Assembly (NCBI GenBank): GCA_902464015.1
Contig: CABQHM010000001.1
Location: 91,244 to 155,243, forward strand
DNA: 64,000 nt
Direction: 5' to 3'
From: an uncultured Coriobacteriales bacterium
GTDB taxonomy: Bacteria; Actinomycetota; Coriobacteriia; Coriobacteriales; UMGS124
Shown here: positions 2-39,219 of the stretch, piece by piece
Position numbering within the stretch: the first letter of the stretch is position 1
How the letters are laid out: every line of letters starts with the position of its first letter
The notes under the pieces: generated by a model
Database searches by the model: none
What the model was told of the DNA's origin: nothing
The model's input: only the letters and a program-made list of their open reading frames with translations
Position numbers and translations under genes: made by a program

Positions 2-415
2 AGGCGCGCGCTTGAGGTGAACGCCCCCGACGCAGACGACCCTCTCGACATGCTCGCAAAGCTGGGAGGCTTCGACATCGCAGGCCTTGTGGGACTCTAT
101 CTGGGGTGCGCTGTGCAGCGCATGCCCGTCGTCATCGACGGTTTCATCAGCTCGGTCGCAGCGCTTTTGGCCTGCCGCATCGCCCCTGCGAGCCGCGCCT
201 TCATGCTTGCCTCGCATCGCTCGGCCGAACCCGCGGCGGCGGCCGTGATGCGCGAGCTCGGCCTCTCCCCCATCATCGACGCTGGCATGCGCCTGGGCGA
301 GGGCACGGGGGCCGTGTGCCTCTTTCCCCTGCTCGACATGGCGTGCGCGCTTTACCGCGACGGCATGACGTTTGACGAGTACCACATGGACGCATACCAG
401 GAGCTGGGTAAATGA
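2..415 (+). CDS. cobT: Nicotinate-nucleotide--dimethylbenzimidazole phosphoribosyltransferase CobT, C-terminal part (5' end outside the window)
   Basis: The frame is open from base 2, so the GTG at 17 is only the first start-like codon. The sequence ...GGFDIAGLVGLYLGCA..PVVIDGFISSVAALLA..ASHRSAEPAAA..MRLGEGTGA matches the conserved CobT C-terminus. Its stop overlaps the next start (ATGA at 412). Confidence 0.8.
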   Translation, partial: RRALEVNAPDADDPLDMLAKLGGFDIAGLVGLYLGCAVQRMPVVIDGFISSVAALLACRIAPASRAFMLASHRSAEPAAAAVMRELGLSPIIDAGMRLGEGTGAVCLFPLLDMACALYRDGMTFDEYHMDAYQELGK

Positions 416-1125
416 TCTGCCTGGTGTGGGGTCCCTCGGCCAGCGGCAAGAGTGCCTGGGCCGAGACGCGGGCATGCGAGCTGGCGCAGGGCGCATCGAG
501 CGGGCAGGCGACGCCTGAGGCAGCGCCCGCCAACGGCGTGCGGCCCGCCCCAGATGAGACCGAGACGGCCGCCCCCGCGCGTCTCGCCTACTTCGCAACC
601 ATGCAGCGCGGCGGGCGCGAGGCTCAGGCGCGCATCGAAAAGCATCTGGCACAGCGGGCGGGAAAAGAATTCGTTACATATGAGACGCCCGTGCTTTCTG
701 CCCTAGCAGATACCCTGGTAGATGCGAGCGCGACCGTGCTTCTCGACGATTTGGGCAACCTTGTGGCCAACGAGATGTTCGGCGCGGAGACCCCGAACGC
801 AGACATCGAAGAACTTGCCGGGCGCATATGTGCGCGTTTGCTGGACCTCGCCGGACGCGTGCGCCACCTCGTGGTGGTAGCCGACGCCGTGGGCGAGGCG
901 GGCTGGCGGGGCGGCGGGCTCACCCTTGCGTGGATCGAGTGCTGTGAGACGTGCTGCTGCCTGCTTGCAAACGCCGCCGGCGAGGTCGTGGAGGTGCGCG
1001 GGGGCATCGCGCAAACGGTGAAGTCCCTGCGTCCGGCCCGCCTCGAGCAAATTGCCACAGAGACATTCACGAACCTGCCCACACATCCCTCACCACGAAA
1101 GGCCGCCCCATGCGACACCCGATAG
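412..1125 (+). CDS. cobU: Adenosylcobinamide kinase / adenosylcobinamide-phosphate guanylyltransferase (CobU/CobP family) with a low-complexity insert
   Basis: P-loop WGPSASGKSAWAE, an ARIEKHLAQR segment that contains a His, and LLDDLGNLVANE (CobU-like DClT.W..N). It sits between cobT and cobS. The C-terminal third is divergent and overlaps the cobS start by 16 nt. Confidence 0.7.
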   Translation: MICLVWGPSASGKSAWAETRACELAQGASSGQATPEAAPANGVRPAPDETETAAPARLAYFATMQRGGREAQARIEKHLAQRAGKEFVTYETPVLSALADTLVDASATVLLDDLGNLVANEMFGAETPNADIEELAGRICARLLDLAGRVRHLVVVADAVGEAGWRGGGLTLAWIECCETCCCLLANAAGEVVEVRGGIAQTVKSLRPARLEQIATETFTNLPTHPSPRKAAPCDTR

Positions 1126-1913
1126 AGAGCCTCCGTGCCGCCGGCCGCGCCGTGGCCATGGCGTTCTCCACGTTCTCTCGCATACCCATGCCCCAGATAT
1201 GCTGGGAAAAGGCCAACATGCGCTATCTTATGTGCGCCTTTGTGCTCGTGGGCGCGGTTGTGGGGGCGGCTCAGGTCGCCTGGCTTGCGCTTGCCGGCGC
1301 CTTGGGGCTCTCAAATCTTCTGCAAGGCGTGGGATACGTGCTTGTCGCCGTGGGCGTAACGGGCGGTATCCACCTCGACGGCCTCGCTGATGTGGCCGAC
1401 GCCCTTTCGAGCCACGCCGAACCCGCTCGCAAGGTTGAGATCATGAAGGACCCACACGCCGGCGCCTTTGCCCTCATCGCCCTTGTCTGCTACCTCATGG
1501 CGCAGGTGGCTCTTGCCGGCGAAGCAGGCATCTCGGGCGTGCGCGACCTCGTGGCGCTCGGCCTCATCCCCCTTGCCTCACGCTGTACAGCCGGCCTCGC
1601 CACACTTGTGCTGCCCAGCGCAAGCAAGCACGGCATGCAGCAGTCCTTCCGCGATGCGGGACGGACAGACACACGACCGCTTATACTGCTTGGCGCCGAG
1701 GGAGCCCTTGTGGCGTGCGCCATGGTGGCGGTGCGCCCTGTGTTCGGCCTGGTCGGCGTGGTCGTATGCGCTGCCTGCGCGGCACTCGCCGCCCGGCGTG
1801 CCCGCAAAGAATTCGGTGGCTTCAACGGCGACCAGGCGGGTTGTTTGCTCCAGACATGCGAGCTTGCGCTCCTCGCCCTGCTCGTGGTGGTCCAGAAGGC
1901 AGGACTTGCATGA
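1110..1913 (+). CDS. cobS: Adenosylcobinamide-GDP ribazoletransferase (cobalamin synthase) CobS
   Basis: Polytopic membrane protein. AMAFSTFSRIPMP and GGIHLDGLADVADAL are classic CobS motifs. I chose the internal ATG at 1110; the track ORF begins at 951 with an Arg-rich stretch that overlaps cobU. Confidence 0.85.
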   Translation: MRHPIESLRAAGRAVAMAFSTFSRIPMPQICWEKANMRYLMCAFVLVGAVVGAAQVAWLALAGALGLSNLLQGVGYVLVAVGVTGGIHLDGLADVADALSSHAEPARKVEIMKDPHAGAFALIALVCYLMAQVALAGEAGISGVRDLVALGLIPLASRCTAGLATLVLPSASKHGMQQSFRDAGRTDTRPLILLGAEGALVACAMVAVRPVFGLVGVVVCAACAALAARRARKEFGGFNGDQAGCLLQTCELALLALLVVVQKAGLA

Positions 1914-2311
1914 TTCTCATTGTGGGCGGGACAAGCTCGGGCAAGGCGACCTTTGCACGCAACCTCGCAGCACAGCATGGTTGGAGCGAGGACGACATCG
2001 CCTTCAACGTGGAAGAACTGCTGTGGGGGCAAGCCAAGGGCACCGACCAGATTACCCCGGCTGACGGCGATGCTGCCGACCATACCAGCAGCAAGGCCCT
2101 ATCGGCAACGCTCGAACTGCTTGAGCGGCTCGCGGCCAAAGAAATCGTCACCTGCTCTGAGGTGGGTGCAGGCATCGTGCCGCTCGACGCGCAGGAGCGC
2201 GCCTGGCGAGAGGCCGTGGGCCGCATGTCCTGCGAGCTGGCGAACCAAGCCGACGTCGTCGTGCGCATGGTCTGCGGCATCCCCGTCGTGCTCAAGGGAG
2301 AACTTGCATGA
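1910..2311 (+). CDS. Short CobU-like P-loop protein (133 aa), a truncated paralogue of adenosylcobinamide kinase
   Basis: ILIVGGTSSGKATFA P-loop plus a CobU-like C-terminus, SEVGAGIVPLD..R.WREAVGR..ELAN.ADVVV..VCGIPVVLKG. The central His-containing segment is missing. ATGA overlap with the cobS stop. Confidence 0.55.
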   Translation: MILIVGGTSSGKATFARNLAAQHGWSEDDIAFNVEELLWGQAKGTDQITPADGDAADHTSSKALSATLELLERLAAKEIVTCSEVGAGIVPLDAQERAWREAVGRMSCELANQADVVVRMVCGIPVVLKGELA

Positions 2312-3069
2312 ATGGCGCAGGTCGCACGGGATTGGCACCCAGCGCCCATGAACCCAGCCCCCTGCGCATCGCCCTCATCAGGCACGCGCCCACGCAGGGC
2401 AACCTGGAGGGACGCTATGTGGGCGCCACTGACGAGGACCTAGACGACCAGGGCCGCGCACGTGCCAGCGAGGCGGCCCCTGCGCTCTCCGGCCTGGCGC
2501 CCCGCCATCTCTTCACGAGCGGCATGCAGCGCTGCGACGAGACGGCGGTCATCCTCTTCCCAAAGCTGGTTCCTGCGCACCTGCCCGGCTTGGCCGAGAT
2601 GCACTTTGGAGCCTTTGAGGGCAAGACGTACGCCGAGATGGGCGAAGACGCGCGCTACCAGGCCTGGGTGGACTCGGGATGCACCGCGGCATGCCCCGGC
2701 GGCGAAGCGCAGGCAGAGTTTATCGCACGCGTGCGCACGGCGTTTGAGCAGGCACTCGACGACCTCGCAGGCGTGCAAGCAGGGAGCGGGAATCAGGGCT
2801 TGCAAGGCAGCGGGCGGCACGCAAACCGCGCAAGCCCGGATGCGCACAGGGACGCTCGCGCCATGGGAGCCGTAGACGCCGCTTTTCTTGTGCATGCAGG
2901 AACCATCATGGCGGCGATGTCGGAACTGGCAGAACCCAAGCGCAGCTACTGGGACTGGAAAACGACCTATTGTGCAGGCTTCGAGGCATGGGCACGGCAC
3001 GCGGAGAATGGCTGGCGACTCACAGATGTGCGGGAGCTGCCGCGTCGCATGGAGTATCATGGCGCCTGA
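2308..3069 (+). CDS. cobC: Alpha-ribazole phosphatase-like histidine phosphatase (CobC family)
   Basis: LRIALIRHAPTQGNLEGRYVGATDEDL (RHG-type phosphoglycerate-mutase-family motif) and FGAFEGKTYAEM. Located after cobS, with an ATGA overlap to the preceding gene. Contains a Gly/Gln-rich insert. Confidence 0.7.
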   Translation: MNGAGRTGLAPSAHEPSPLRIALIRHAPTQGNLEGRYVGATDEDLDDQGRARASEAAPALSGLAPRHLFTSGMQRCDETAVILFPKLVPAHLPGLAEMHFGAFEGKTYAEMGEDARYQAWVDSGCTAACPGGEAQAEFIARVRTAFEQALDDLAGVQAGSGNQGLQGSGRHANRASPDAHRDARAMGAVDAAFLVHAGTIMAAMSELAEPKRSYWDWKTTYCAGFEAWARHAENGWRLTDVRELPRRMEYHGA

Positions 3070-3084
3070 CCGTATCAAGCGCGA

Positions 3085-3275
3085 CACCCGGGGATTGTGC
3101 CTGGGTATTGCAGGGGGAACCGGGTGAGATTCCCGGACTAGGGACATAACTGTGAGGGCACGCGCCCGTAGTCAGATTACCCTGCCCGCCTGAGCGGCCA
3201 TCCCGCAAACGGGAGGCCGCGCACCGCATCCGCCCTGTGAACCCCGAGGCAGGTGCCTGCCAGAAGGCAACGCCG
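3085..3275 (+). promoter_or_regulatory. Cobalamin (B12) riboswitch
   Basis: Core elements read directly from the sequence: CAGGGGGAACCGGGTGAGATTCCCGG (3111-3136), ATAACTGTGAGG, and the B12 box GTAGTCAGATTACCCTGCC (3168-3186). It lies in the 265-nt gap upstream of the cbiK-like gene. The outer boundaries are approximate. Confidence 0.8.
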
Positions 3276-3334
3276 AGCCACACGTCCGGCGGGCCTTGGC
3301 GTGCGCGTACTCCACGAGAGAATTGGACACGCAC

Positions 3335-4237
3335 ATGTTCGAGACCGCACTTTCCCGTCGCACCGCCATCGCCGCAGGACTCACCGCCGCCGGCGCCAGC
3401 CTCGTCGCCCAGGCGGGCATCGCCCAGGCCGACGAGGCCAAGGCCCCCAAGCCCGTCATCCTCGTGGTGAGCTTCGGCACGAGCTACAACGACTCTCGCC
3501 ACATCACCATCGGTGCCATCGAGGACGCCATCCGCGAGGCCTACCCCGACTACGACGTGCGCCGCGCCTTCACCGCGCAGATCATCATCGACAAGCTCGC
3601 CGAGCGCGACGGCATCGTCATCGACAACTTCGAGCAGGCCATGGACAAGCTCGTGGAGGAGGGCGTGCAGAAGGTCATCGTGCAGCCCACCCACCTTATG
3701 GCCGGCTATGAGTACACCGACGTCCTCAACTCCCTGCAGAGCAATTACGCCGACAAGTTCGACGCCATCGTGCTGGGCGACCCGCTGCTCACGAGCGACG
3801 AGGACTATAGCGAGGTCGTTGAGGCCATCTGCGACGCCACGGCAGAATACGACGACGGTCAGACCGCCATCTGCTTCATGGGCCACGGCACCGAGGCCGA
3901 CTCCAACGGGGACTACACGCACCTGCAGCAGGTCCTGACCGACGCGGGCCACACGAGCTACTTCGTGGGCACCGTCGAGGCAACCCCCACGTTCGACGAC
4001 GTTGTCGAGGCCGCCCAGGCCGCCGGCTTCACCAAGGCCGTACTGCGCCCGCTCATGGTCGTCGCCGGCGACCACGCCAACAACGACATGGCCGACACCG
4101 AGGACCCCGACTCCTTTGCCAGCAAGTTCATCGCCGCTGGCTTTGAGGTCGAGTGCGTCGTCGAGGGCCTGGGCCAGCTCGTGGCCATCGACGACATCTA
4201 CGTGCGCCACGTGGCCGACGCCATCAACCAGCTCTAA
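3335..4237 (+). CDS. cbiK: CbiK-family sirohydrochlorin cobaltochelatase homologue with a twin-arginine signal peptide (predicted exported)
   Basis: MFETALSRRTAIAAGLTAAGASLVAQAGIAQA/DE is a Tat motif plus h-region plus AxA cleavage site. The mature part shows VILVVSFGTSY, VIVQPTHLMAGYEY and FMGHGTE, typical of CbiK. The track ORF starts at a TTG at 3296; I use the ATG at 3335. Confidence 0.8.
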   Translation: MFETALSRRTAIAAGLTAAGASLVAQAGIAQADEAKAPKPVILVVSFGTSYNDSRHITIGAIEDAIREAYPDYDVRRAFTAQIIIDKLAERDGIVIDNFEQAMDKLVEEGVQKVIVQPTHLMAGYEYTDVLNSLQSNYADKFDAIVLGDPLLTSDEDYSEVVEAICDATAEYDDGQTAICFMGHGTEADSNGDYTHLQQVLTDAGHTSYFVGTVEATPTFDDVVEAAQAAGFTKAVLRPLMVVAGDHANNDMADTEDPDSFASKFIAAGFEVECVVEGLGQLVAIDDIYVRHVADAINQL

Positions 4238-4267
4238 GCCTGCATAGCTTCCATATTTCAAGCAACA

Positions 4268-4319
4268 GGCCCCGCGTCGCACCGGCGTTTCCCCAGGCCG
4301 GCATGCATGGCGCGGGGCC
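4268..4319 (+). other. Intra-operon stem-loop (9-bp GC stem GGCCCCGCG / CGCGGGGCC); possible attenuator or processing site
   Basis: Inverted repeat 4268-4276 / 4311-4319 in the 97-nt gap between cbiK and the next gene, followed by CTTCCTCATTTCTGC. The loop is long (34 nt), so this is not a canonical terminator. Confidence 0.3.
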
Positions 4320-4334
4320 CTTCCTCATTTCTGC

Positions 4335-5264
4335 ATGAAGCGCATCATCCAAGGACAGCACATGACCTACAGCACACATCGCAACGCCATTGCACTCGCA
4401 GCGCTCAGTCTCACACTCCTCTGCGCGCCCCTGGCTTGGAACGCAGACCAGGCCCATGCTGCCGTGCGCATCCAGCCTGCCGCGACCCAGCAGGCTGGCG
4501 ATACCGGCAGTTCCTCCGACAAAGTAGCTCAGGGTGCGGCAGCGGCCCAGCAAGACCTGCCCGACACCAAGAAGCTCACCGCCGTGAAGGCCTCCGACCT
4601 TGAGGAGGGCACCTACACGATCGAAGTCGCCTCAAGCTCGAGCATGTTCCGCATCACCGAAGCAAAGCTCACCGTTGCTGACGGAAAAATGACCTGCGAG
4701 CTCACCATGAGCGGCAAAGGCTACGGCAAGCTTTTCATGGGCACGGGCGAGCAGGCCGCACAGGCCGACGAGAAGGACTGCATCCCCTACGTGGACAATG
4801 CGGGCGGCACGCACTCCTTCACGGTGCCGGTGGAGGCGCTCAACACCGAGATCGACTGCGCCGCGTGGAGCATCAAGAAAGAGTCCTGGTACGACCGCAC
4901 CCTGGTGTTCCTCGCCGACACGCTGAAGCCTGCCGAGGCCACGCTTGCCAACGGTACCTACACGGCCAGCGTGGCGCTTGAGGGCGGCACGGGCCGCGCG
5001 AGCGTAGAGACGCCCTGCACCCTCAAGGTGGAGAAGGGTGCCATGACCGCCACCGTGGTGTGGTCGAGCCCCAACTACGACCAGATGGTCGTGAACGGCA
5101 CGCAATACCTTCCCGTGAACAAGACCGGCAACTCGACGTTCGAGATCCCCGTGGCGGCGCTCGACACGCCCCTGGCCGTGCAGGCCGAGACGTGCGCGAT
5201 GAGCGAGCCGCACATGATTGACTACACGCTCACCTTCTCCGCACCCGTCGCGCAGAAGGGCTAG
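4335..5264 (+). CDS. Secreted protein with two tandem ~105-aa beta-rich domains; family unknown (candidate tetrapyrrole-binding surface protein)
   Basis: Signal peptide ...AIALAALSLTLLCAPLAWNADQAHA/AV (alternative start at ATG 4362). There is an internal repeat: aa 85-197 and aa 200-305 align (GTYT..V, [KT]L.V..G.MT, F..PV.AL.T, D.TL.F). I recognise no enzyme motif. Confidence 0.6.
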   Translation: MKRIIQGQHMTYSTHRNAIALAALSLTLLCAPLAWNADQAHAAVRIQPAATQQAGDTGSSSDKVAQGAAAAQQDLPDTKKLTAVKASDLEEGTYTIEVASSSSMFRITEAKLTVADGKMTCELTMSGKGYGKLFMGTGEQAAQADEKDCIPYVDNAGGTHSFTVPVEALNTEIDCAAWSIKKESWYDRTLVFLADTLKPAEATLANGTYTASVALEGGTGRASVETPCTLKVEKGAMTATVVWSSPNYDQMVVNGTQYLPVNKTGNSTFEIPVAALDTPLAVQAETCAMSEPHMIDYTLTFSAPVAQKG

Positions 5265-5268
5265 ACGG

Positions 5269-6567
5269 ATGACCCAGAGCCGCGAACGCACACGCACATG
5301 GCCTGCGAAAACCCTCACACGCAGGGATTTCATCGACTTAGCCGCTGCTGCTGGCGCAGGTGCGGCGTGCGTTGCGGCTCTGGGACTTGCGGGATGCTCT
5401 TGCGCCGACGACGGCGAGGTCGCAAACGGCGCGGCGACGTCGGCGAACCAGACGAGCGGCTCTGATGGGGACAACCCTGCGAGCGCCGAGCGTCCCTCGT
5501 GGAGCAACCCCGAGGTGGGAGGCAACCTTGTGCACACGGGCAGCCTCGACCTCGCCTGGGCCACAGGCTTCACCGTGGACCTCTACGAGGGAGACCGCGC
5601 CCTTGTCTGCATCGCCGACGGCACGCGCTACCTTTTTGTGCCCGCAGGCGATGCGTCCCAGGAAATCGCCGACGACATCACGGTGCTTGAGCGGCCCCTT
5701 TCGAACATCTACCTCGCAAGCTCCTCAACGCTGTGCCTCTTTGCGGCCCTCGACGCCGTGGATTGCGTGAGCCATGTGAGCGTCACGCAGGAAACTTGTA
5801 CGGTAGAGGCGTTTACGCAGGCCATCGCCTCGGGGGACATCGTCTACGGCGGCAAGTACAGCGCACCCGACTACGAGGCGTTTCTCAACGGCGGCTGCAG
5901 GCTCGCCGTGGAGAACACGATGATCTACCACACCCCCGAGGTGCGCGAGAAGCTCATGCAGCTCGGCGTTCCCGTCATCGTTGAACAATCGAGCCTGGAG
6001 AGCGCCCCGCTCGGCAGGCTCGAATGGATCATGCTGTGGGGCGCCATGCTCGACAAGGTGTCGGCGGCCCAAGAGGTTCTCGACAGGCAAGCCCAGCTTA
6101 TCGCAGACGTTGAGGCGCGTGTGGCAGCCCAGCCGCTCGACTGCACCGTCGCCTTCTTCTACATCAACGCCAACGGCGCGGCCGTGGTGCGAAAACCCGG
6201 CGACTACGTGGCGAAGATGATTGCCATGGCGGGCGGCACCTACGCGTTTGCCCAGCTCGCAGGCGCTGACGAGAACCGTTCCTCCTCCACCACGCTCGAG
6301 ATGGAGGCGTTCTACGCCCAGGCAAAAGACGCTGACGTCATCATCTACAACTCCACGGTGGCAGGCAGGCTCAAAGGACTCGACGAGCTTGTGGCGCTCA
6401 ACCCCTTGCTCGCTGACTTCAAGGCCGTCAAGAACCGCCGGGCCTGGTGCTGCGAGCAGAACGTCTACCAGCAGATGACTGCGACGGGCGAAGTGGTGGC
6501 CGACCTGCACGAGGCGATAGCCGACACCGAACGCGATGAGCTCACCTTCTTCTTCAGGCTCACATGA
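5269..6567 (+). CDS. ABC transporter substrate-binding lipoprotein, BtuF/FecB (periplasmic binding protein type 2) family, with Tat-type signal
   Basis: TRRDFIDLAAAAGAGAACVAALGLAGC is a twin-Arg motif plus a lipobox Cys. The body resembles cluster-A binding proteins (IYLASSS, PVIVEQS, WIMLWGAML, DVIIYNS). ATG at 5269; the track start at 5218 is Arg-rich and overlaps the previous gene. Confidence 0.8.
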   Translation: MTQSRERTRTWPAKTLTRRDFIDLAAAAGAGAACVAALGLAGCSCADDGEVANGAATSANQTSGSDGDNPASAERPSWSNPEVGGNLVHTGSLDLAWATGFTVDLYEGDRALVCIADGTRYLFVPAGDASQEIADDITVLERPLSNIYLASSSTLCLFAALDAVDCVSHVSVTQETCTVEAFTQAIASGDIVYGGKYSAPDYEAFLNGGCRLAVENTMIYHTPEVREKLMQLGVPVIVEQSSLESAPLGRLEWIMLWGAMLDKVSAAQEVLDRQAQLIADVEARVAAQPLDCTVAFFYINANGAAVVRKPGDYVAKMIAMAGGTYAFAQLAGADENRSSSTTLEMEAFYAQAKDADVIIYNSTVAGRLKGLDELVALNPLLADFKAVKNRRAWCCEQNVYQQMTATGEVVADLHEAIADTERDELTFFFRLT

Positions 6568-7622
6568 CACACGAAAGGCGCACGATGAGGCACACAGACA
6601 GCTGGCGAGACAGCAAGCGGCGATTCGTCGTGACCATGGTGCTGGCAAGCCTGGTGCTGGTGGCGCTTCTGTGCGCGAACCTGTGCATCGGGTCGGTGGG
6701 CATGAGCCCTGCCGAGCTGCTGGGAGCGCTCGCAGCAGGCCCGGGGGCAAGCGGCCTTGAAGCGAGCGTCATCTGGCAGATACGCCTGCCCCGCGCCGTG
6801 AGTGCCGCCATTCTCGGCGGGGCGCTTGCGTGCTCGGGCTTCTTGCTGCAGACCTTCTTCAACAACCCCATCGCGAGCCCCTACATCCTGGGCATCTCGG
6901 CAGGCGCCAAGTGCGCACTGGCCGCCGTGACGATCTGCGTCATCGGAGCAGGCGGGGCGCTTGCGTCCTGGCAGGTGGTGGGCGCGGCGTTTGTGGGCTC
7001 GCTGGCGGCAACCGCCCTGGTACTGGGCTTGTCAACAAAGATTCGCTCTATGAGCATGCTCATTGTCGCCGGCGTGATGGCAGGCTATGTCTTCAACGCG
7101 ATCACCGACTTCCTCGTGACCTTTGCAAGCGACCAGAACATCGTGAACCTGCACAACTGGGCCCTGGGCAGCTTCTCGGGGGCTACCTGGAGCCAGGTGG
7201 GCGTTGAGGCAGCCGTGTGCGCCGCGGGCTTCGCGGCCTCGATGGCGCTGGCAAAACCTATGGCGGCTTTCCAGCTCGGCGAGGGCTACGCCAAGAGCGT
7301 CGGCGTCAACGTGCGGCTCTTCCGCGCGGCGCTCATCGCCGTGGCAAGCCTTTTGGCCGCCTGCGTCACCGCTTATGCCGGCCCCGTGGGATTCGTGGGC
7401 ATCGCGGTGCCCTACCTGGCGCGTACGGCGCTTGCCTCCTCGAAGCCCGTGCGCGCAGTGCCGGCGTGCCTGGTGATGGGGGCTGCCTTCTGCCTTCTGT
7501 GCGACCTGGTGGCGCGCACGCTCTTCTCCCCCACCGAGCTCAACCTGGGCACGGTCACAGCCGTGTTCGGCGCACCGGTGGTCATCACGCTCATGATGCG
7601 CCGCACCCGGGAGGGACGTTAA
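6564..7622 (+). CDS. FecCD/BtuC-family ABC transporter permease
   Basis: About 10 hydrophobic helices. IRLPRAVSAAILGGALACSGFLLQ, NPIASPYILGISAGA and GPVGFVGIAVPYLAR are FecCD signatures. ATGA overlap with the binding-protein gene. Confidence 0.85.
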   Translation: MTHERRTMRHTDSWRDSKRRFVVTMVLASLVLVALLCANLCIGSVGMSPAELLGALAAGPGASGLEASVIWQIRLPRAVSAAILGGALACSGFLLQTFFNNPIASPYILGISAGAKCALAAVTICVIGAGGALASWQVVGAAFVGSLAATALVLGLSTKIRSMSMLIVAGVMAGYVFNAITDFLVTFASDQNIVNLHNWALGSFSGATWSQVGVEAAVCAAGFAASMALAKPMAAFQLGEGYAKSVGVNVRLFRAALIAVASLLAACVTAYAGPVGFVGIAVPYLARTALASSKPVRAVPACLVMGAAFCLLCDLVARTLFSPTELNLGTVTAVFGAPVVITLMMRRTREGR

Positions 7623-8846
7623 ATGATCAGGCAGATGGCGTTGCAGACGTACGGCCTCAATGTGGGATACGGGCGACGCTGCGTGGTGGGAGGCGTCACG
7701 CTCGACCTTGTGCCCGGCGAAGTGCTCTGCCTCGTGGGGCCCAACGGCTCGGGCAAGTCGACCCTGCTCAAGACAATCGCCGGCCAGATTGCGCCCCTAG
7801 GCGGCACCGTGCTGCTCGATGGGCGCGACGCGAGCTCCTTCAAGGCAGACGAGCTGGCCCGCAGCCTCTCGGTGATGCTCACGGGGCGCATGGCCTGCGA
7901 GATGCTGAGCTGCCTAGACGTGGTGGAGACGGGCCGCATCCCCTACACGAACGCCCTGGGCACACTGCGCGAGGCCGACCGCGAAGCGGTGAAGGGTGCC
8001 ATGCAGGCCGTGGGCGCCTGGGAGCTGCGCGAGCGCGACTTCATGCAGATAAGCGACGGCCAACGCCAGCGCGTGCTGCTGGCCCGCGCCATCGCCCAGG
8101 ACGCACCCGTGATGGCGCTCGACGAACCCACCTCCTACCTCGACATTCGCCATCAGCTGGAGCTGCTTGCCTGTGTGCGCGACCTTGCGCGCACGCGCGG
8201 GTGGACCTGCCTGCTGTCGCTGCACGAGCTCGCCTTGGCCCAGAAGGTTGCCGACCGGGTGGCCTGCGTGTGCGAGGGCGGCATATATGCGCAAGGTGCC
8301 CCCGAGGACGTGCTTGACGCGCCCACGGTGGCCCATGTGTTCGACTTGGGGCGCGCGGCTTGGAGCGCGGCGCTGGGATGCGTGGAGGATGCGCCGCTCG
8401 AAAGCGCGGCCCGCGTGTTTGTGCTTGGAGGCGCGGGCACAGCGGCAGCCTCGATGCGTGCGCTGCGCCGCGAGGGCGTGGGCTTCTGCGCAGGCGTGCT
8501 GCCTGAAAACGACGTGGATTGTGTGCTTGCACATAGGCTCACGGCCCACGTGGTGAGCACGTCGGCCTTTACTCTGCCCGGCAAGGAGACGATGGCGCTG
8601 GCCCGTGAGATGCTTGCGGGTTGCGAGGCACTTGTGGACTGCCTGAGCTCGATGGATGCGGGGCCTCTGGAGGCCTGCCGACGCGATATGCTCGCGTGCG
8701 CACAAGCGGCAGGGCTTCCCGTCCATGGGAGCGCAGTACAGTATTTGGAAGCGTTGCGCAATCAAAAAGCACACGAAGATGCAGGCAGAGAGGTATGTAT
8801 TTGCTGCGATGCCACGGCGGCGCGAGCAGAGGCGGTGAGGCCATGA
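7623..8846 (+). CDS. ABC transporter ATP-binding protein (BtuD/FecE-like) with a ~145-aa C-terminal extra domain
   Basis: Walker A GPNGSGKST, signature ISDGQRQR, Walker B VMALDEPT, H-loop LSLHE. Residues ~262-407 (VFVLGGAGTAAASMRALRREGVGF..) lie beyond a normal ATPase. The stop overlaps the cbiD start (ATGA at 8843). Confidence 0.85.
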   Translation: MIRQMALQTYGLNVGYGRRCVVGGVTLDLVPGEVLCLVGPNGSGKSTLLKTIAGQIAPLGGTVLLDGRDASSFKADELARSLSVMLTGRMACEMLSCLDVVETGRIPYTNALGTLREADREAVKGAMQAVGAWELRERDFMQISDGQRQRVLLARAIAQDAPVMALDEPTSYLDIRHQLELLACVRDLARTRGWTCLLSLHELALAQKVADRVACVCEGGIYAQGAPEDVLDAPTVAHVFDLGRAAWSAALGCVEDAPLESAARVFVLGGAGTAAASMRALRREGVGFCAGVLPENDVDCVLAHRLTAHVVSTSAFTLPGKETMALAREMLAGCEALVDCLSSMDAGPLEACRRDMLACAQAAGLPVHGSAVQYLEALRNQKAHEDAGREVCICCDATAARAEAVRP

Positions 8847-10057
8847 CGCTCGAGCACTATGTCGAGGTCGGCAAGAAGCGCCTGCGCTGCGGCTACACCA
8901 CGGGCACCTGCGCGGCCGCGGCGGCCCAGGCCTGCGGGCAGGCGCTTCTTGCGGGGAGCTTTCCCCACTCCCTGCGCATCGACACCCCGGCGGGCGTTGC
9001 TGTGGTAGTGGAACCCGAAGAGATGCATCGGGGCACCGATGCACAGGGCACCCCCTGGTCAAGCTGCGGGGTGCGCAAGGACGCAGGCGACGACGCGGAT
9101 GCCACCGACGACGCGCTGGTCGTGGTACGCGTGAGCCTCACGGACACTCCGGGCACAACAATTGAGGGTGGTGCCGGCGTGGGGCGCGTGACGCGCGCCG
9201 GGCTCGACCAGCCCGTGGGAGCCGCGGCCATCAACTCGGTACCCCGCGCCATGATTGCCTCCGAGCTCGAGCGGATTGCCCGCGAGCATGGCTGGCATGG
9301 CGGCTTTGCGGTGGAGGTGTCGGTGCCCGGCGGAGAAGAAATCGCACGCAAGACCTTCAACCCGCGCCTGGGCATTGAAGGGGGCATTTCGATTCTGGGA
9401 ACGTCGGGCATCGTGCGGCCCATGAGCGAGGAGGCCCTCGTCGAGTCCATCCGCCTGGAGATGCGCATGAGACGTGCGCAGGGACTGCGCGACCTTGTGC
9501 TCGTGCCGGGAAACTACGGCCAGGACTGGGCGCAAGACAGGGAAGGCGTCGACCCCACACATATCGTGAGCTGCTCGAACTTCCTGGGCGAGGCGCTTGA
9601 TTACGCTGGTGTGCTCGGCTTTGAGACGCTTGTGCTCGTGGGGCATATGGGCAAGCTCGCCAAGGTCGCAACGGGCGCCATGAACACCCACTCGCGCGTG
9701 GCCGACGGGCGCGCCGAGGCGTTCGCGGCACATGCAGCCCTGGCAGGTGCAGGGCGCGACGACATCGCCCGCCTTATGGAGTGCGCCACGACCGACGAGG
9801 CGCTTGAGGTGCTCGCGGGGCACGGCCCAGGCGAGACGGCCGTCTCAGATGAGCGAGAGTGCCTGCTCGCCACAACGCTGCGCGGCCTCACGCAGGCAAT
9901 TGCGTGGCACGTAAGCCGGCGAGGAGACCCCGTACGCTGCGAGGTCGTGGTGTTCTCGAAGGCATGGGGCGAGTTGGGACGATCGGGTGGGGCGCAGGAA
10001 CTCTTGGACAGGCACCGCGTGCGCGGCACGGCGGCAAGGAAGGAAGGCCGGATATGA
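8843..10057 (+). CDS. cbiD: Cobalt-precorrin-5B (C1)-methyltransferase CbiD
   Basis: LRCGYTTGTCAAAAA, GVGRVTRAGL, GISILGTSGIVRPMS and LVPGNYG are CbiD hallmarks. The internal ATG at 8843 was chosen. Confidence 0.9.
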   Translation: MTLEHYVEVGKKRLRCGYTTGTCAAAAAQACGQALLAGSFPHSLRIDTPAGVAVVVEPEEMHRGTDAQGTPWSSCGVRKDAGDDADATDDALVVVRVSLTDTPGTTIEGGAGVGRVTRAGLDQPVGAAAINSVPRAMIASELERIAREHGWHGGFAVEVSVPGGEEIARKTFNPRLGIEGGISILGTSGIVRPMSEEALVESIRLEMRMRRAQGLRDLVLVPGNYGQDWAQDREGVDPTHIVSCSNFLGEALDYAGVLGFETLVLVGHMGKLAKVATGAMNTHSRVADGRAEAFAAHAALAGAGRDDIARLMECATTDEALEVLAGHGPGETAVSDERECLLATTLRGLTQAIAWHVSRRGDPVRCEVVVFSKAWGELGRSGGAQELLDRHRVRGTAARKEGRI

Positions 10058-10935
10058 TCGACTTTGTGGGAGCGGGCCCGGGCGCCGTCGACCTCATAAC
10101 CGTGCGCGGCATGCATGCCCTGCAGCAGGCAGACGTCGTGGTGTACGCAGGCTCACTGGTAGATCCCGAGATGCTGTCGTATTGCCGTCCCGAGGTGAAA
10201 GTGCACGACTCGGCACATATGACGCTTGAGGAAGTCGTCGACGTGCTCGTGGCAAGCGACCGCGCAGGCAAGCACACCGTGCGCCTGCACACGGGAGACC
10301 CGGCCATGTACGGGGCCATCCGCGAGCAGATGGACCTGCTCGACGAGGCAGGCGTGACCTATCGGGTGATACCCGGCGTGTCGAGCGTGTTTGCCGCGGC
10401 AGCGGCCCTCAACTGCGAGTTCACCCTGCCCAGCGTGTCCCAGTCGCTCGTGCTCACACGCGTGGAGGGGCGCACGCCGGTGCCGAGCGGCGAGGAGCTG
10501 CGCACGTTTGCCGCCCATGGCTGCACCATCGCGCTCTTTCTCTCCTGCGGTCTGCTCGAACGCGCCCGTGAGGAGCTGCTTACAGGAGACCTGTCGCCCC
10601 AGACCCCGGCGGCCCTTGTGTATCGTGCAAGCTGGCCCGATGAGAAAATCGTGCGCTGCGATGTAGGGAGCCTGCCCGAAGCGGCCCGCGAGGCAGGACT
10701 CAGCAGGCAGGCAATCGTGCTCGTGGGAGACGCCCTAGCCGGCAGCCTTAAAGCCGCCCACGCCGAGCGGTCGCTGCTCTACGACCCGAGCTTCACGCAC
10801 GGCTACCGCGTGGGAACGGGTGGAGACGAAACGCTGGCAGGCAGCGCGGATGCGGGCCCGGCGGCGCAGGATGACACGCAAGGTATGCAGGGCACGCAGG
10901 ACCTACGCGACCCGCACGACGAGGCGCACGCATGA
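10054..10935 (+). CDS. cbiF: Cobalt-precorrin-4 C11-methyltransferase CbiF
   Basis: IDFVGAGPGAVDLITVRG, VVVYAGSLV, RLHTGDPAMYGAIREQ, IPGVSSVFAAAAAL and LTRVEGRTPVP. ATGA overlap with cbiD. Has a ~45-aa low-complexity C-terminal tail. Confidence 0.9.
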   Translation: MIDFVGAGPGAVDLITVRGMHALQQADVVVYAGSLVDPEMLSYCRPEVKVHDSAHMTLEEVVDVLVASDRAGKHTVRLHTGDPAMYGAIREQMDLLDEAGVTYRVIPGVSSVFAAAAALNCEFTLPSVSQSLVLTRVEGRTPVPSGEELRTFAAHGCTIALFLSCGLLERAREELLTGDLSPQTPAALVYRASWPDEKIVRCDVGSLPEAAREAGLSRQAIVLVGDALAGSLKAAHAERSLLYDPSFTHGYRVGTGGDETLAGSADAGPAAQDDTQGMQGTQDLRDPHDEAHA

Positions 10936-12089
10936 GCCAGATTGCCATCGCGGGGTTCACGACAAGCGGCTGCGTTCTGGCCCAAAAGATAGTCAGCGAA
11001 CTGGAAGGCGCCCGTGCCTGGGCACCGCACCGCATCTCCGAAGAAGTGGGCCTACCCGGCTTCGACAGTGTCGGGGCATGGGCAGGCGAGGCTTTTGCGC
11101 ACGGCTGCGACGGCATCGTCTTCGTGGGAGCGTGCGGCATCGCCGTGCGCGCCATAGCCCCGTATGTGACCAGCAAGATGCACGACCCCGCTGTCGTGTG
11201 CGTGGACGAGGCCGGCACTTGGGCAATATCCCTGCTCAGCGGCCATGTGGGCGGCGCAAACGACCTTGCGCGCCACATCGCGCGCATCGTGGGGGCCACG
11301 CCTGTCGTCACCACGGCCACCGACGTGCGCGGCGCCTTCGCCATCGACGAGTGGGCGGCACGGCAAGGCCTCGTCATCGCAAATCCCCAGCTCATCAAGC
11401 ATGTTTCAGGCGCACTGCTCGAGGGTGGGCACGTTGGGGTGCGCGTGGGACGGCAGGTGTCCCTGACAGGCGAGCTTCCCGCGGGGTTCGTGCGCGAGGA
11501 GTGCGCAGGCGACACGAGCAGCGCAAGCGACACGAACGACACTGGCGACATCCGCAAGCCCTGCCCCGCAGGAGCCGCCCCCGACTCAGCGGATGCATCT
11601 CACGTTCTTCACGCGCACGTCCACATCGGGCCCGAGCTGCCCTGTGAAAACGACCCCGACACGCTGCATCTCATCACGCGCAACGCAGTGGTGGGCGTCG
11701 GGTGCAGGCGCGGTTGCGAGCCGGCAATCCTGCAAGACTGCGTCGAGGCAGCGCTGGTCGGCCTTGGTTTGGCGCCGGAATCAGTGCGCGCTCTGGCCAC
11801 CATCGACCTCAAGGCCGCAGAGCCCGCCGTGGTCGAGCTTGCCGCAAAGCACGGCTGGCTCCTGCGCACCTTTAGCGCCCAGGCACTCGCCGCGCAAAGC
11901 GGTGACTTCGCATCGTCGGAGTTCGTGCGGGCCCACGTGGGCGTGGACAACGTGTGCGAGCGGGCCCTTGCCTGCTGCGGGGCCACGCGCATCCTCAGCA
12001 AGCAGGCCCATCAGGGAACGACCGTGGCCGTGGGCCTTGTGCCCAAGGCGCTCAGCTTTGATATGAAGGAAGGAAGCGACCATGCCTAA
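10932..12089 (+). CDS. cbiG: Cobalt-precorrin-5A hydrolase CbiG
   Basis: GIVFVGACGIAVRAIAPYV, PAVVCVDEAG, SLLSGHVGGANDLA and the C-terminal CbiG domain (VVGVGCRRG...LATIDLKA.EPA). ATGA overlap with cbiF. Confidence 0.85.
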   Translation: MSQIAIAGFTTSGCVLAQKIVSELEGARAWAPHRISEEVGLPGFDSVGAWAGEAFAHGCDGIVFVGACGIAVRAIAPYVTSKMHDPAVVCVDEAGTWAISLLSGHVGGANDLARHIARIVGATPVVTTATDVRGAFAIDEWAARQGLVIANPQLIKHVSGALLEGGHVGVRVGRQVSLTGELPAGFVREECAGDTSSASDTNDTGDIRKPCPAGAAPDSADASHVLHAHVHIGPELPCENDPDTLHLITRNAVVGVGCRRGCEPAILQDCVEAALVGLGLAPESVRALATIDLKAAEPAVVELAAKHGWLLRTFSAQALAAQSGDFASSEFVRAHVGVDNVCERALACCGATRILSKQAHQGTTVAVGLVPKALSFDMKEGSDHA

Positions 12090-12825
12090 GCTCTACGTTG
12101 TGGGCCTGGGACCCGGAGCGGGAGCCGACCTCACCCAGCGTGCCCGCGCGGCGCTCGAAGAAAGCCAGGTCATAGCCGGATACACGACCTACGTCAACCT
12201 TGTGCGCGATGCCTTTCCCGAAAAAGAGCTGCTCGTAAGCGGCATGCGCGGCGAGGTTCAGCGCTGTCGGGCGGCCCTGGAGCATGCGGCAGGAGGGGCG
12301 ACGGTGGCTCTCGTGTGCTCGGGCGATCCGGGCGTCTACGGCATGGCGGGCCTCGTGCTCGAACTCGCCCAGGACATGGGCCTGGCAGACGCAGTCGAGG
12401 TTGAGGTCGTGGCCGGTGTCACCGCCGCCACGGGAGGAGCGGCGCTTTTGGGCGCGCCCCTCATGCACGACTTCTGCCTCGTGTCGCTTTCCGACCTGCT
12501 CACACCCTGGGATGCCATCGAGGCGAGGCTGCGTGCGGCAGCGCGTGCCGGCTTTGTCATCTGCCTCTACAACCCCTGCTCCCACGGCAGGCCCGACCAC
12601 CTGGCACACGCGACGCAGATCCTGCTTGAGGAGCTGCCGGCGAGCTGCGTGTGTGGCATCGCACATAACGTGGGCAGACCCGGCGAAAGCGCGCGCGTGC
12701 TCACCTTGGGCGAACTCGCGGATGCCCCGGCCGACATGACGAGCGTTGTCTACGTGGGCAACGCCACAACGCGCGAAATCGCCGGCCGCATGGTGACGCC
12801 GCGCGGCTACCAGGTGAGGCAGTAG
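12082..12825 (+). CDS. cbiH: Cobalt-precorrin-3B C17-methyltransferase CbiH
   Basis: LYVVGLGPGAGADLT, VIAGYTTYV, VCSGDPGVYGMAG and LSDLLTPW. 8-nt overlap with cbiG. Confidence 0.9.
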   Translation: MPKLYVVGLGPGAGADLTQRARAALEESQVIAGYTTYVNLVRDAFPEKELLVSGMRGEVQRCRAALEHAAGGATVALVCSGDPGVYGMAGLVLELAQDMGLADAVEVEVVAGVTAATGGAALLGAPLMHDFCLVSLSDLLTPWDAIEARLRAAARAGFVICLYNPCSHGRPDHLAHATQILLEELPASCVCGIAHNVGRPGESARVLTLGELADAPADMTSVVYVGNATTREIAGRMVTPRGYQVRQ

Positions 12826-13599
12826 ATGGCAGGCGGCTCTCAGGCATGCCGCGTCCTCGTGTTCGCCGGAACCACAGAGGGCCGCGAGCTGGCATCATGG
12901 CTGAGCACGCAAGACGGCGTGGAAACGTGCGTGTCGTGCGCGACCGACTTCGGGGCGCACCTTCTAGGGGCGCTCCCCCACACTCGCGTCTTGGCACAGC
13001 GTCTGGACGAGGTGGGCATGGAACACCTCATGGCACAGGGCGCGTTTGATGTGGTGGTTGACTGCACGCACCCCTACGCAAGCGTTGTCACCGCGAATGC
13101 CCGCGCGGCAGCCCTGGCGCAGGGATGCGAGTACCTGCGCGTTGTGCGCGAGGGGGAGCCCGTTGGCGATTGGATTCGGGCGGAGTCGCCGGCGCATGCC
13201 GCCGAACTGCTGGCCGGCCTTCCCGGAGACATCCTGCTCACCACGGGCACGAAGGACATCGCCGCCTACTGCTCGCAACCCGGCCTTCGTGAGCGCATCT
13301 GGGTACGCTGCCTTCCCAACGAGGCATCGGTTCAGGCGGCGCGGCAAGCGGGCATCCCGCCCGAGCGCATCGTGGGTGCCATGGGACCGTTCTCCCTGGA
13401 AGACAACGTGGCGCTCATCAGACACAGCGGCGCGCGCATCCTCGTGACAAAGGCCTCGGGCACGACGGGCGGTTTTTGGGAGAAAGTGCAGGCAGCACGA
13501 AAGACGAGGTGCACGCTTGTCGTCATTGGGCGGCCGACGAAAGAAGAGGGCCTCACGCTTGAGGAGGCCAAGGCACAGCTGGCAAGGAGGTTTGGATGA
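12826..13599 (+). CDS. cbiJ: Cobalt-precorrin-6A reductase CbiJ
   Basis: VLVFAGTTEGRELA, VVDCTHPYA, LLTTGTKD and LVTKASGTTGG. Position in the cbi string supports the call. Confidence 0.85.
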   Translation: MAGGSQACRVLVFAGTTEGRELASWLSTQDGVETCVSCATDFGAHLLGALPHTRVLAQRLDEVGMEHLMAQGAFDVVVDCTHPYASVVTANARAAALAQGCEYLRVVREGEPVGDWIRAESPAHAAELLAGLPGDILLTTGTKDIAAYCSQPGLRERIWVRCLPNEASVQAARQAGIPPERIVGAMGPFSLEDNVALIRHSGARILVTKASGTTGGFWEKVQAARKTRCTLVVIGRPTKEEGLTLEEAKAQLARRFG

Positions 13600-17205: not shown

Positions 17206-17263
17206 GAAGACATGTTTGGATGAAGCCGCGCACACGTGCGGCACAGCGAACGGGAGGAGCGGC

Positions 17264-18889: not shown

Positions 18890-19554
18890 GTGCAACCACC
18901 CTGGGCACGCTCGAGCATGTGAAGCCCGGTGACATCGAGACGCGCTCGTTTGAAATCATTACCGAAGAGCTCCGCCAGCGCGGCGTCAGCCTCGACCCCG
19001 CGACGGCGCCTGTCATCATGCGCGCCATCCACACGACGGCCGACTTCGACTATGCCGAGAACCTGCTCTTCTCCCCTGGTGCGATGCAGGCGGGAGTGGA
19101 GGCGCTCAAGGCGGGGGCATCCGTGGTGACCGACACCACCATGGCGCAGTCGGGCATCAACAAGCGCGCCCTGGCACGCCTGGGCGGCGAGGCCCTCAAC
19201 TTCATCCGCGACCCCGAGGTCATGCAAGAGGCACGCGACAAGGGCGTCACGCGTTCCGCCATGGCCATGGAGAAGGCCGCCGGGTTGGGGCGCCCCCTCA
19301 TCTACGCCGTGGGCAACGCCCCCACCGCCCTCGTGCAGCTGCGCGAGCTCATTGACAAGGGAATGGACATACCACCTGCGCTTATCATCGGTGTGCCAGT
19401 CGGCTTTGTAAACGTGACAGAATCAAAAGAGCTCATCATGGGGCTCAAGGACGTACCTTGGATCGTGGCGCAGGGCCGCAAGGGTGGCAGCAACGTGGCG
19501 GCCGCAATCGTCAATGCGCTGCTGTATGTGGCAACTGATAATGTGAGGGAGTGA
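18886..19554 (+). CDS. cbiC: Cobalt-precorrin-8 methylmutase CbiC
   Basis: IETRSFEII, RAIHTTADFDY, GNAPTAL and GVPVGFVNV. ATGA overlap with cobQ. Last gene of the operon. Confidence 0.9.
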   Translation: MSATTLGTLEHVKPGDIETRSFEIITEELRQRGVSLDPATAPVIMRAIHTTADFDYAENLLFSPGAMQAGVEALKAGASVVTDTTMAQSGINKRALARLGGEALNFIRDPEVMQEARDKGVTRSAMAMEKAAGLGRPLIYAVGNAPTALVQLRELIDKGMDIPPALIIGVPVGFVNVTESKELIMGLKDVPWIVAQGRKGGSNVAAAIVNALLYVATDNVRE

Positions 19555-27588: not shown

Positions 27589-27605
27589 AAGCGTAGGGTC
27601 CTTCC

Positions 27606-39140: not shown

Positions 39141-39219
39141 GGTTCCTCCTCACTGGCGCGTCGTCGTTGGCGTGCGCGCGAATGCAAAACTGCAAATCGG
39201 ACAGTATAGCGCGCGGTCG

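Follow-up and report, generated by a model that had tools for sequence, protein, structure and literature searches.

In a 64,000-nucleotide stretch of DNA from an uncultured Coriobacteriales bacterium (the whole of which is called the window here), five co-directional genes lie between the nucleotide-loop genes and the anaerobic corrin-ring genes of cobalamin (B12) biosynthesis. They encode an exported homologue of the chelatase CbiK (P1), a secreted protein with two putative NEAT-fold domains (P2), a class III substrate-binding lipoprotein (P3), a FecCD/BtuC-type permease (P4) and an ATP-binding cassette (ABC) ATPase with an additional C-terminal domain (P5). From the sequences, we read this cassette as a putative B12-repressed system for the extracytoplasmic capture and import of a cobalt tetrapyrrole, with cobamides or incomplete corrinoids as the likeliest cargo, and would give this reading an even chance of being right. 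An earlier note, made from the letters of the window alone, had seen five genes for membrane or extracytoplasmic products; these genes and their export signals are confirmed (Table 1).

The cassette is conserved as a block far beyond the window. One genome per species was scanned for homologues of P2, and such a homologue is encoded in at least 564 species genomes, among them those of Lachnospiraceae, Oscillospiraceae, other Clostridia, Coriobacteriia, Gaiellales/Thermoleophilia and Syntrophomonas. The locus counts given below rest on the best 80 of these at least 564 loci, and the riboswitch counts on the 76 of the 80 that have upstream sequence. A gene for CbiK lies immediately upstream of the P2 homologue in every locus with upstream sequence, and genes for the binding protein, permease and ATPase follow downstream in all untruncated loci but two; the order CbiK, NEAT-like protein, binding protein, FecCD permease, ABC ATPase is kept across phyla. 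The earlier note had staked its proposal on such conservation in relatives, and the gene order holds in the best 80 loci. The gene cbiD adjoins the cassette in 13 of the 80 (downstream on the same strand in 8, divergent in 5), and about 67 cassettes stand alone, away from cbi genes. The cassette is thus mainly a stand-alone unit of Clostridia, and its weld to a ring operon is a minority arrangement. Two of the loci carry labels that do not fit their content and are probably mis-binned: L014 is labelled Acutalibacteraceae, yet shares synteny and about 70-80% identity with the Coriobacteriia locus, and L034 is labelled Paludibacteraceae, yet has a Clostridium-type cassette with a CbiK N-terminus near-identical to those of L033 and L035.

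Variant arrangements of the cassette were also seen. In L051/L096 (8963-20216) a riboswitch precedes genes for a lipoprotein CbiK, a NEAT-like protein and a 72-amino-acid (aa) open reading frame (ORF), followed by cbiD, F, GH, a J-methylase, T, A, cobD and cbiC. In L042, from Anaerotignum lactatifermentans An390, a 640-aa ORF (10931-12853) joins a cassette ATPase lacking PF27219 to CbiD, with the junction ...YRAYYGQERLEHYIETGGKRLRCGYTTG...; this ORF may be a genuine fusion that functions, or may reflect a frameshift at an ATGA-type overlap. In L006 (16261-19412) and L021 (from 14099), a second cobalamin riboswitch (RF00174, 96 bits) and a plain BtuFCD-type importer, whose ATPase is without the extra domain, lie about 2 kb downstream of the cassette, which suggests that the two importers are not redundant.

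Control by B12 appears to extend to the family at large. In 69 of the 76 loci, high-GC Actinobacteria included, the strand of the cassette carries upstream of it a cobalamin-clan riboswitch that scores at the Rfam gathering level. Sixty-six of these riboswitches were detected by home-made covariance models (R1 and R2), for which riboswitches of orthologous cassettes served as the training set, and the 3' ends of these 66 lie 129-722 nucleotides (nt) before the conserved CbiK domain; the nine weakest matches were all confirmed by Rfam (43-105 bits), and three further riboswitches were found by Rfam directly. The seven loci without a gathering-level riboswitch are five from Coriobacteriia together with L021 and L042. 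These sequences strongly support B12 control as a property of the cassette family. Such control would mean that the cassette is wanted when cobamide is scarce, which points to a supply of corrinoid or cobalt and argues against one of haem or iron. In L066, an Anaerotignum metagenome-assembled genome (MAG), the cassette is preceded at 1117-1265 (+) by the adenosylcobalamin (AdoCbl) riboswitch RF01482 and not by RF00174, while its sister isolate L042 has no gathering-level match; the cassette thus recruits different members of the riboswitch clan.

P1 consists of a twin-arginine (Tat) signal (aa 1-32) and a chelatase domain (aa 42-297), in agreement with the earlier description of a Tat-signal CbiK homologue. 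The signal was read from the sequence as MFETALSRRTAIAAG...AQA followed by DE; the N-terminus, MFETALSRRTAIAAGLTAAGASLVAQAGIAQA before the same DE, combines a twin-arginine motif with a mildly hydrophobic core and AxA sites. The SRR of the signal is kept in Coriobacteriia relatives, and the Tat form is specific to this class. Orthologues from Firmicutes and other actinobacteria open with lipoprotein signals (MKK...LAGCG) and then an acidic linker, a few being of Sec type I; by a crude regular-expression count, at least 60 of 77 CbiK orthologues have a lipobox. The possibility that the P1 signal is a start-codon artefact was considered and is ruled out by the lipoprotein signals on the orthologues. 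Firmicute cassette CbiKs often have an acidic motif, EENY(D/E)TGDASLDNxRNQD(E/D)IGExEL, between the lipoprotein linker and the chelatase domain (for example L005, 8935-9200), and this motif is absent from Coriobacteriia CbiKs. One locus, L085 (6232-7836), encodes a tandem CbiK-CbiK lipoprotein.

Among proteins in the PDB, P1 matches Salmonella enterica CbiK (1qgo, E=9e-45), Porphyromonas gingivalis FetB/IhtB (9b86, E=4e-40) and Desulfovibrio vulgaris CbiK(P) (2xvx, E=9e-37). Against NF047852, the NCBIfam equivalog for biosynthetic CbiK, it scores 220.8 bits and does not reach the cut-off of 400. The residues that align to the metal and catalytic residues of S. enterica CbiK are nevertheless present, namely the H of PTH, the E of VE and the H of MGHG. 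In window numbering, H120, H184 and E215, together with the motif GDHANNDMA, are at least 97% conserved across 82 cassette CbiKs. Judged by these residues, the cassette CbiK family keeps a complete chelatase site outside the cell, and the exported protein looks catalytically active. No second CbiK was found by tblastn in the window or in any of the 16-20 kb orthologous loci, and neither cbiL, cobA, a second chelatase nor a recognisable cobalt transporter was found within the 64 kb. The gap that separates the genes for P1 and P2 has a GC hairpin (GGCCCCGCG...CGCGGGGCC, about 4269-4318) followed by the pyrimidine/U-rich CUUCCUCAUUUCUG. A scan for terminators did not pick up this hairpin; it may serve as an internal attenuator and so set the ratio of CbiK to the downstream proteins.

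P2 had been described as a secreted two-domain protein of unknown family. The secretion signal and the two domains were confirmed, and the family can now be named from a predicted structure. A Sec-type signal (a hydrophobic segment, then AHA followed by A) and a low-complexity linker precede domain 1 (about aa 75-190) and domain 2 (about aa 191-300), which are 30% identical to each other (E=9e-7). The whole protein scores 34.1 bits against the NEAT family PF05031, with a gathering threshold of 32.8 and no single stretch passing, and precomputed hits to this family are 'faint'. An AlphaFold2 model built with 19 homologues has a mean predicted local distance difference test (pLDDT) score of 78, with values above 85 in both domains. 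When this model was compared with the PDB using Foldseek, it matched the NEAT domains of IsdH, IsdB, IsdX1, IsdC and Hbp2 with a probability of 1.0. Target-normalised template modelling (TM) scores were 0.6-0.7 for IsdX1, IsdC, Hbp2 and IsdH-N3, and the tandem matches were IsdH-N2N3 and IsdB. As modelled, P2 is a divergent tandem-NEAT protein. Neither domain shows an evident YxxxY, the canonical haem-ligand motif of NEAT domains: in domain 1 W176-Y177, which is invariant, is followed by L at +4, and domain 2 has P283-H284-x-x-x-Y288. Both sites may correspond to the NEAT haem pocket. P2 has no LPXTG motif. A natural in-frame fusion of CbiK to a tandem-NEAT protein (P0052) suggests that the CbiK and NEAT proteins are physical partners. 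Another protein, P0028, has three NEAT-like domains. Homologues of P2 fall into more than 4212 clusters and are annotated as 'hypothetical protein' in RefSeq and UniProt. An assignment of P2 as a PplA-like protein binding flavin mononucleotide (FMN) was rejected (the NCBIfam match, at 18 bits against a cut-off of 325, is to the linker, and the domains have the NEAT fold), as was the idea that the source name 'major membrane immunogen' is meaningful.

The three remaining proteins are the parts of an ABC importer. P3 begins with TLTRRDFI...GLAGC, a twin-arginine motif combined with a lipobox (LAGC), and lipoboxes also occur in its orthologues. As read from the sequence, export signals are therefore found on all three soluble components (Tat on P1, Sec on P2, Tat plus lipobox on P3), as had been claimed. 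The best NCBIfam match of P4 is the BtuC model PRK03784 (202 bits, cut-off 334), in keeping with its earlier identification as a FecCD permease. That of P5 is PRK09536, an archaeal-type 'corrinoid ABC transporter ATPase' (237 bits, cut-off 537), in an alignment that runs through aa 338 and takes in part of the C-terminal extension. This extension, previously seen as an extra domain, is catalogued as PF27219, is shared with the archaeal corrinoid ABC ATPase model and probably regulates transport; its assignment on P5 comes from the precomputed annotation of identical and orthologous proteins. Both P4 and P5 score higher against B12/corrinoid models than against haem models. A Peripla_BP_2 protein, a FecCD permease and an ABC ATPase thus stand in one operon, the combination that marks a BtuFCD/FeCT type II importer. 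None of P3, P4 or P5 reaches an equivalog-level match to the experimentally defined BtuF, BtuC or BtuD, and the earlier label of P3 as BtuF-like holds for its TRRDFI motif, its lipobox and its Pfam family but not at that level. Bulky chelates, among them B12, haem and siderophores, are the usual cargo of FecCD permeases that work with class III binding proteins.

Two ATGA stop/start overlaps reported earlier are present. One, at 6564-6567, joins the binding-protein stop to the permease start, for which gene callers on identical contigs choose 6585 in place of the ATG at 6564. By the other, at 8843-8846, the corrin-ring operon appears to be translationally coupled to the ATPase gene. The claim that the cassette is coupled to cbiD and onward to cbiC holds for the cbiD overlap; the gene that follows cbiD is cbiF, and cbiC comes last.

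The leader between cobC and the cassette was searched for the elements that form the core of cobalamin-clan riboswitches (GGGAA junction, P4 hairpin with a GNGAAAUUCC-like loop, B12 box). The candidate aptamer is made up of a 5' hairpin (3087-3105), the GGGAA junction, the P4 hairpin CCGGG-UGAGAUU-CCCGG and a short P6-like hairpin. Its B12 box, AGUCAGAUUACCCUGCC (consensus about AGCCAGGAGACCUGCC), and its L5 region, CUAGGGACAUAAC, are atypical and deviate from the consensus at several positions. Seven Coriobacteriia leaders were aligned, from species with 60-80% protein identity. Apart from the variable P6-like loop, their core (about 3104 to 3190) is invariant amid flanks and proteins that diverge. 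GGGGGAA and the P4 hairpin are identical in all seven, the pairing of the 5' hairpin is kept through differing sequences (compensatory changes), and the P6-like hairpin varies in length. The core motif occurs at the same position before the cassette in six of six relatives with upstream sequence and is present in a single copy in the window; when metagenomes were scanned for the atypical core ACTAGGGACATAACTGTGA, the matches were this locus in four close relatives and two chance ones, with no new gene contexts and no added diversity from which to read covariation. The folding z-score is -2.28 for the whole leader and -0.65 for the aptamer alone, a value that is uninformative in sequence of 65% GC. 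The R1 and R2 models, which find 66 loci, miss the window leader and the other Coriobacteriia leaders, and the window leader can therefore not be filed as a clan member by score. The orthologous leader of L008 (P2 about 71% identical) scores 17.6 bits against RF00174, with a gathering threshold of 31.5, and the relatives L011, L013 and L014 have no gathering-level match. The expression platform holds a strong hairpin, GCGGCC-A-UCCCG-CAAA-CGGGA-GGCCGC, and a stem that adjoins the start codon (GUGCG...CGCAC-AUG); no U-tract terminator was found in it, and the mode of regulation is probably translational. The leader is probably a conserved functional RNA that resembles a cobalamin riboswitch and fails the membership score. 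We think it likely that it senses a corrinoid, and the family-wide riboswitch linkage is the strongest indirect support for a riboswitch in the window.

The following order of events would fit these features. When cellular B12 falls, the leader RNA would allow expression of the cassette. The tandem-NEAT protein, which in most other lineages is lipid-anchored, would take its ligand outside the cell, and the exported CbiK-fold protein would partner it, either by holding the macrocycle in its chelatase cleft or by performing metal chemistry on it; both the NEAT fold and the chelatase cleft accommodate tetrapyrroles. The ligand would then be handed to the lipoprotein substrate-binding protein and brought in by the BtuCD-type permease and ATPase. 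In the Coriobacteriia lineage the transcript would run on into cbiD through cbiC, and scavenging and ring synthesis would thus be switched on together. The earlier proposal of one B12-repressed unit agrees with the tight packing of the genes and, at the level of the family, with the riboswitch counts; for the window itself it meets a leader that scores below threshold.

Several results weigh against import of cobamides or incomplete corrinoids under B12 control. No cobalamin riboswitch reached the Rfam gathering score anywhere in the window, and the best permissive match in the 2.2 kb searched, to AdoCbl-II (RF01689) at 3099-3190, has 23.3 bits against a gathering threshold of 36.5 (E=0.023); of the cobalamin riboswitch once placed ahead of the cassette, what is left is a conserved, clan-like element below threshold. 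P3 has no NCBIfam match, its best PDB profile match is 5joq (Lmo2184, E=7e-4), and no informative characterised relative was found. The operon of L051/L096 contains no importer, and no cbiL or other chelatase. All characterised NEAT domains, and likewise the exported CbiK relatives IhtB/FetB and CbiK(P), are reported to bind haem (PMC12094164). The metal triad of CbiK, with its conservation of at least 97%, would be needless in a pure binding protein and hints at cobalt chemistry. Finally, the second, plain BtuFCD under its own riboswitch in L006 and L021 may mean that the cassette carries a cargo other than finished cobamides.

Some of these points would be explained if the cassette supplied cobalt or an early intermediate, an alternative that we hold to be possible but well short of likely. 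The exported CbiK would then be an active enzyme or a metallochaperone that binds Co2+ or loads a scavenged metal-free macrocycle (for example sirohydrochlorin) on the NEAT protein, and the ABC importer would bring in the chelate for the Cbi enzymes. Consistent with this are the conservation of the His/Glu/His site and of GDHANNDMA in the cassette CbiKs, the separate importer in L006/L021, the lack of a second chelatase, cbiL or cobalt transporter within the 64-kb window, the 11-gene cbi operon of L096 with a lipoprotein CbiK as its sole chelatase, the 13 loci in which cbiD lies beside the cassette, and the ATPase-CbiD ORF in Anaerotignum. In addition, cobalt importers are commonly under B12 riboswitches (PMC7689651), and Desulfovibrio species with cbiK have no known cobalt transporters (PMC545781). 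However, about 67 of the 80 cassettes lie away from cbi genes, and free sirohydrochlorin in the environment is not documented. Importers of the FecCD type with class III binding proteins, moreover, usually move bulky chelates and not free ions, and cbiK, cbiL and cobA are commonly found in a separate hem cluster, so that their absence from 64 kb proves little. A bolder proposal, which we regard as doubtful, has the NEAT proteins acting as receptors for corrinoids or for metal-free or cobalt tetrapyrroles and a surface-active CbiK inserting cobalt into an environmental macrocycle (sirohydrochlorin or another B12 precursor), the product then being imported.

Uptake of haem or iron by an Isd/Iht-like system appears quite improbable. 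In such a system the NEAT protein would capture haem, the CbiK-like protein would bind or de-iron it and the ABC importer would bring it in, for example to supply the cytochrome c maturation encoded in the window. The top structural matches of P2 are indeed all haem-binding NEAT domains, characterised relatives of P1 and P2 handle haem in vitro, and the Ccm genes at about 49-54 kb indicate that the organism needs haem; PDB entry 9b86 was deposited as 'Heme-binding protein FetB', and IhtB has been proposed to be a haem dechelatase (PMC12094164, PMC11681262). However, the loci are controlled by B12 riboswitches (69 of 76) and not by iron or haem regulators, the cassette of the window is embedded in B12 genes, and no haem oxygenase (IsdG-like) or sortase was found in the gene-called loci. 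That YxxxY is not evident in either P2 domain, and that permease and ATPase score better against B12/corrinoid models than against haem models, also speaks against haem. It is hardly credible, lastly, that P1 is simply the cytoplasmic cobaltochelatase of the operon, its signal a mis-called start or a non-functional extension and the leader a decayed relic. The sub-threshold riboswitch score, the non-significant z-score of the aptamer and the position of CbiK as the sole chelatase seen with cbi genes in the window could be taken that way. Against this, orthologues in dozens of genera bear unambiguous lipoprotein signals and long acidic linkers (at least 60 of 77 by regular expression), SRR is kept in Coriobacteriia, the NEAT partner and the binding protein are exported as well, a CbiK-NEAT fusion exists, and the leader combines an invariant core amid diverging flanks with hairpins that show compensatory changes. 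Mis-annotation is excluded by the comparative signal-peptide data.

Table 1. Features of the window, numbered from its first nucleotide
Feature	Position	Strand	Basis or remark
Nucleotide-loop genes cobT (3' end), cobU, cobS, short cobU-like ORF, cobC	17..3069	+	
Leader between cobC and five-gene cassette	3070-3334	+	265 nt
Candidate cobalamin-clan-like aptamer	3087..3196	+	sub-threshold Rfam match, conserved core
Leader, putative expression platform	3197..3334	+	sequence, alignment, consensus fold
Five-gene cassette	3335-8846	+	all genes co-directional
P1, exported CbiK-type class II chelatase homologue	3335..4237	+	PF06180, 270 bits
Gap between P1 and P2 genes	4238..4361	+	124 nt, read from sequence
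P2, secreted protein, tandem NEAT fold predicted	4362..5264 (alternative start 4335)	+	AlphaFold2 and Foldseek
P3, class III substrate-binding lipoprotein (Peripla_BP_2)	5269..6567	+	PF01497, 94 bits
P4, FecCD/BtuC-type permease	6564..7622	+	PF01032, 256 bits
P5, ABC ATPase with C-terminal PF27219 (MJ0874) domain of about 150 aa	7623..8846	+	PF00005, 96 bits
Anaerobic corrin-ring operon	8843..19554	+	profile matches
cbiD	8843-10057	+	TIGR00312, 384 bits
cbiF	10054-10935	+	
cbiG	10932-12089	+	
cbiH	12082-12825	+	
cbiJ	12826-13599	+	
cbiET	13596-14837	+	
cbiA	14831-16237	+	
cbiB	about 16192-17205	+	
cobQ/cbiP	17216-18889	+	
cbiC	18886-19554	+	last gene of operon
CcmB-like	49311-50348	-	
CcmA-like ATPase	50149-50784	-	
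CcmF	50789-53014	-	
CcmE	53030-53746	-	

The window has a GC content of about 65%. Its nearest relatives are uncultured Coriobacteriaceae/Coriobacteriales MAGs from the human gut, with protein identities of 92-97%, and proteins identical to those of the window are also found on metagenome contigs of 64-127 kb. Upstream of the cassette, two CobU-like ORFs flank cobS on the plus strand (412-1125, 237 aa, and 1920-2351, about 133-143 aa); both carry PF02283 in the precomputed annotation of an identical contig, and they may represent a split or duplicated cobinamide kinase. Farther away, a full-length raiA motif RNA (RF03072, 155.5 bits, E=7e-39) lies at 31514-31776 on the minus strand, at the 5' end of an SBP_bac_3 ORF (30500-31546, minus strand) with which it has a slight overlap. 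Two long plus-strand ORFs, at 25252-27633 (793 aa) and 39001-41838 (945 aa), have no Pfam match at E<=1e-5. The cytochrome c maturation genes form a System I cluster (49311-53746, minus strand).

The literature searched contained no paper that connects CbiK to NEAT domains, and none that connects NEAT domains to cobalamin riboswitches; what it did contain were analogues in diderms. The cassette appears to be uncharacterised in Gram-positive bacteria. The earlier note knew of no described system with this combination, which is accurate for CbiK with NEAT, with the qualification that described diderm analogues exist in P. gingivalis (iht) and Desulfovibrio. Competition for B12 and its precursors shapes gut communities, and the machinery of extracellular capture is known in detail only for Bacteroides. 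The cassette, encoded in at least 564 species genomes, offers a widespread Gram-positive candidate with a clear regulatory signature and three soluble proteins that lend themselves to purification. Corrinoid binding by its NEAT-like protein, if real, would broaden the known ligands of a well-studied, virulence-associated fold, and if the exported CbiK is catalytically active, it would represent a new class of extracytoplasmic tetrapyrrole chemistry. Should cobalt insertion at the surface prove true, hundreds of species of gut anaerobes would run a late 'de novo' pathway without the early steps or a cytoplasmic chelatase, and a long-standing puzzle, that of the corrin pathway and Iht locus of P. 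gingivalis, would be explained in the same way.

When set beside the riboswitches of clan CL00101 (RF00174, RF01482, RF01689), the window leader has the same GGGAA junction, P4 with a UGAGAUU loop, helix order and B12-box-like 3' strand, and it occupies the position held by bona fide RF00174 elements in orthologous cassettes. It differs in scoring below the gathering threshold of every family, in its atypical L5 and B12 box, and in a very short P6 extension. The Coriobacteriia leader would be an outlier of this clan, strongly conserved and missed by current models.

Among systems built on NEAT domains (the Isd, Hal, IsdX and Hbp systems of Firmicutes), the cassette shares the beta-sandwich, often in tandem, and, as proposed here, the use of surface or secreted receptors that feed a tetrapyrrole to a class III binding protein and FecCD-type importer. 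In contrast to these systems, it has no LPXTG motif, sortase or haem oxygenase, is linked to B12 riboswitches instead of Fur, and always pairs its NEAT protein with a CbiK-fold protein; the similarity of P2 to PF05031 is also marginal, and YxxxY is not evident. The BtuFCD systems of Bacteroides with their BtuG, BtuH and BtuJ proteins are likewise riboswitch-controlled loci in which extra extracellular binders act as a relay to a BtuFCD-type importer (PMC13616437, PMC8941943, PMC10404256), but these binders differ in fold (beta-propeller, DUF4465 and others) and are organised around the receptor BtuB. According to a 2026 review, what accessory binders do in Gram-positives is 'entirely uncharacterized' (PMC13616437).

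The closest parallels come from the two diderm systems with an exported CbiK. D. vulgaris, which makes B12 de novo, has CbiK(P), an exported paralogue that like P1 keeps the chelatase residues; it is periplasmic, has a BtuCDF-like transporter next to it but no NEAT partner, and is accompanied by a cytoplasmic CbiK(C). Work by Romao et al. in 2011 is said to have shown that CbiK(P) binds haem through a histidine between its subunits; at the position aligned to this histidine P1 has Thr. In Desulfovibrio, one B12 element controls both cbiK-cbiL and btuCDF (PMC545781). In P. gingivalis, the ihtABCDE locus follows a B12 riboswitch and encodes a BtuB-like receptor (IhtA), a CbiK-like lipoprotein (IhtB) and an ABC importer (PMC3764172, PMC12094164, PMC11681262). 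The cassette family resembles it in having an exported CbiK-fold protein (in Iht the surface lipoprotein IhtB) beside a class III ABC importer, after a B12 element that in the window is sub-threshold; both systems comprise a lipoprotein binding protein, a FecCD-type permease and an ATPase. Iht, however, belongs to a diderm, is not joined to corrin-ring genes, and has the TonB-dependent IhtA where the cassette has its tandem-NEAT protein; the cassette lacks a gene for an IhtA/BtuB-like TonB-dependent receptor both in the window and in all other gene-called loci. The cited papers on Iht make no mention of a C-terminal extension on its ATPase, IhtE. The function of Iht is disputed in the same way, haem/iron and corrinoid both having been proposed, and the cassette offers a monoderm system in which to approach this haem-versus-B12 question for IhtB and CbiK(P). 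By analogy, the best reading of the cassette is as a monoderm counterpart of the Iht and Desulfovibrio systems, in which a tandem-NEAT protein would take the place of the TonB receptor.

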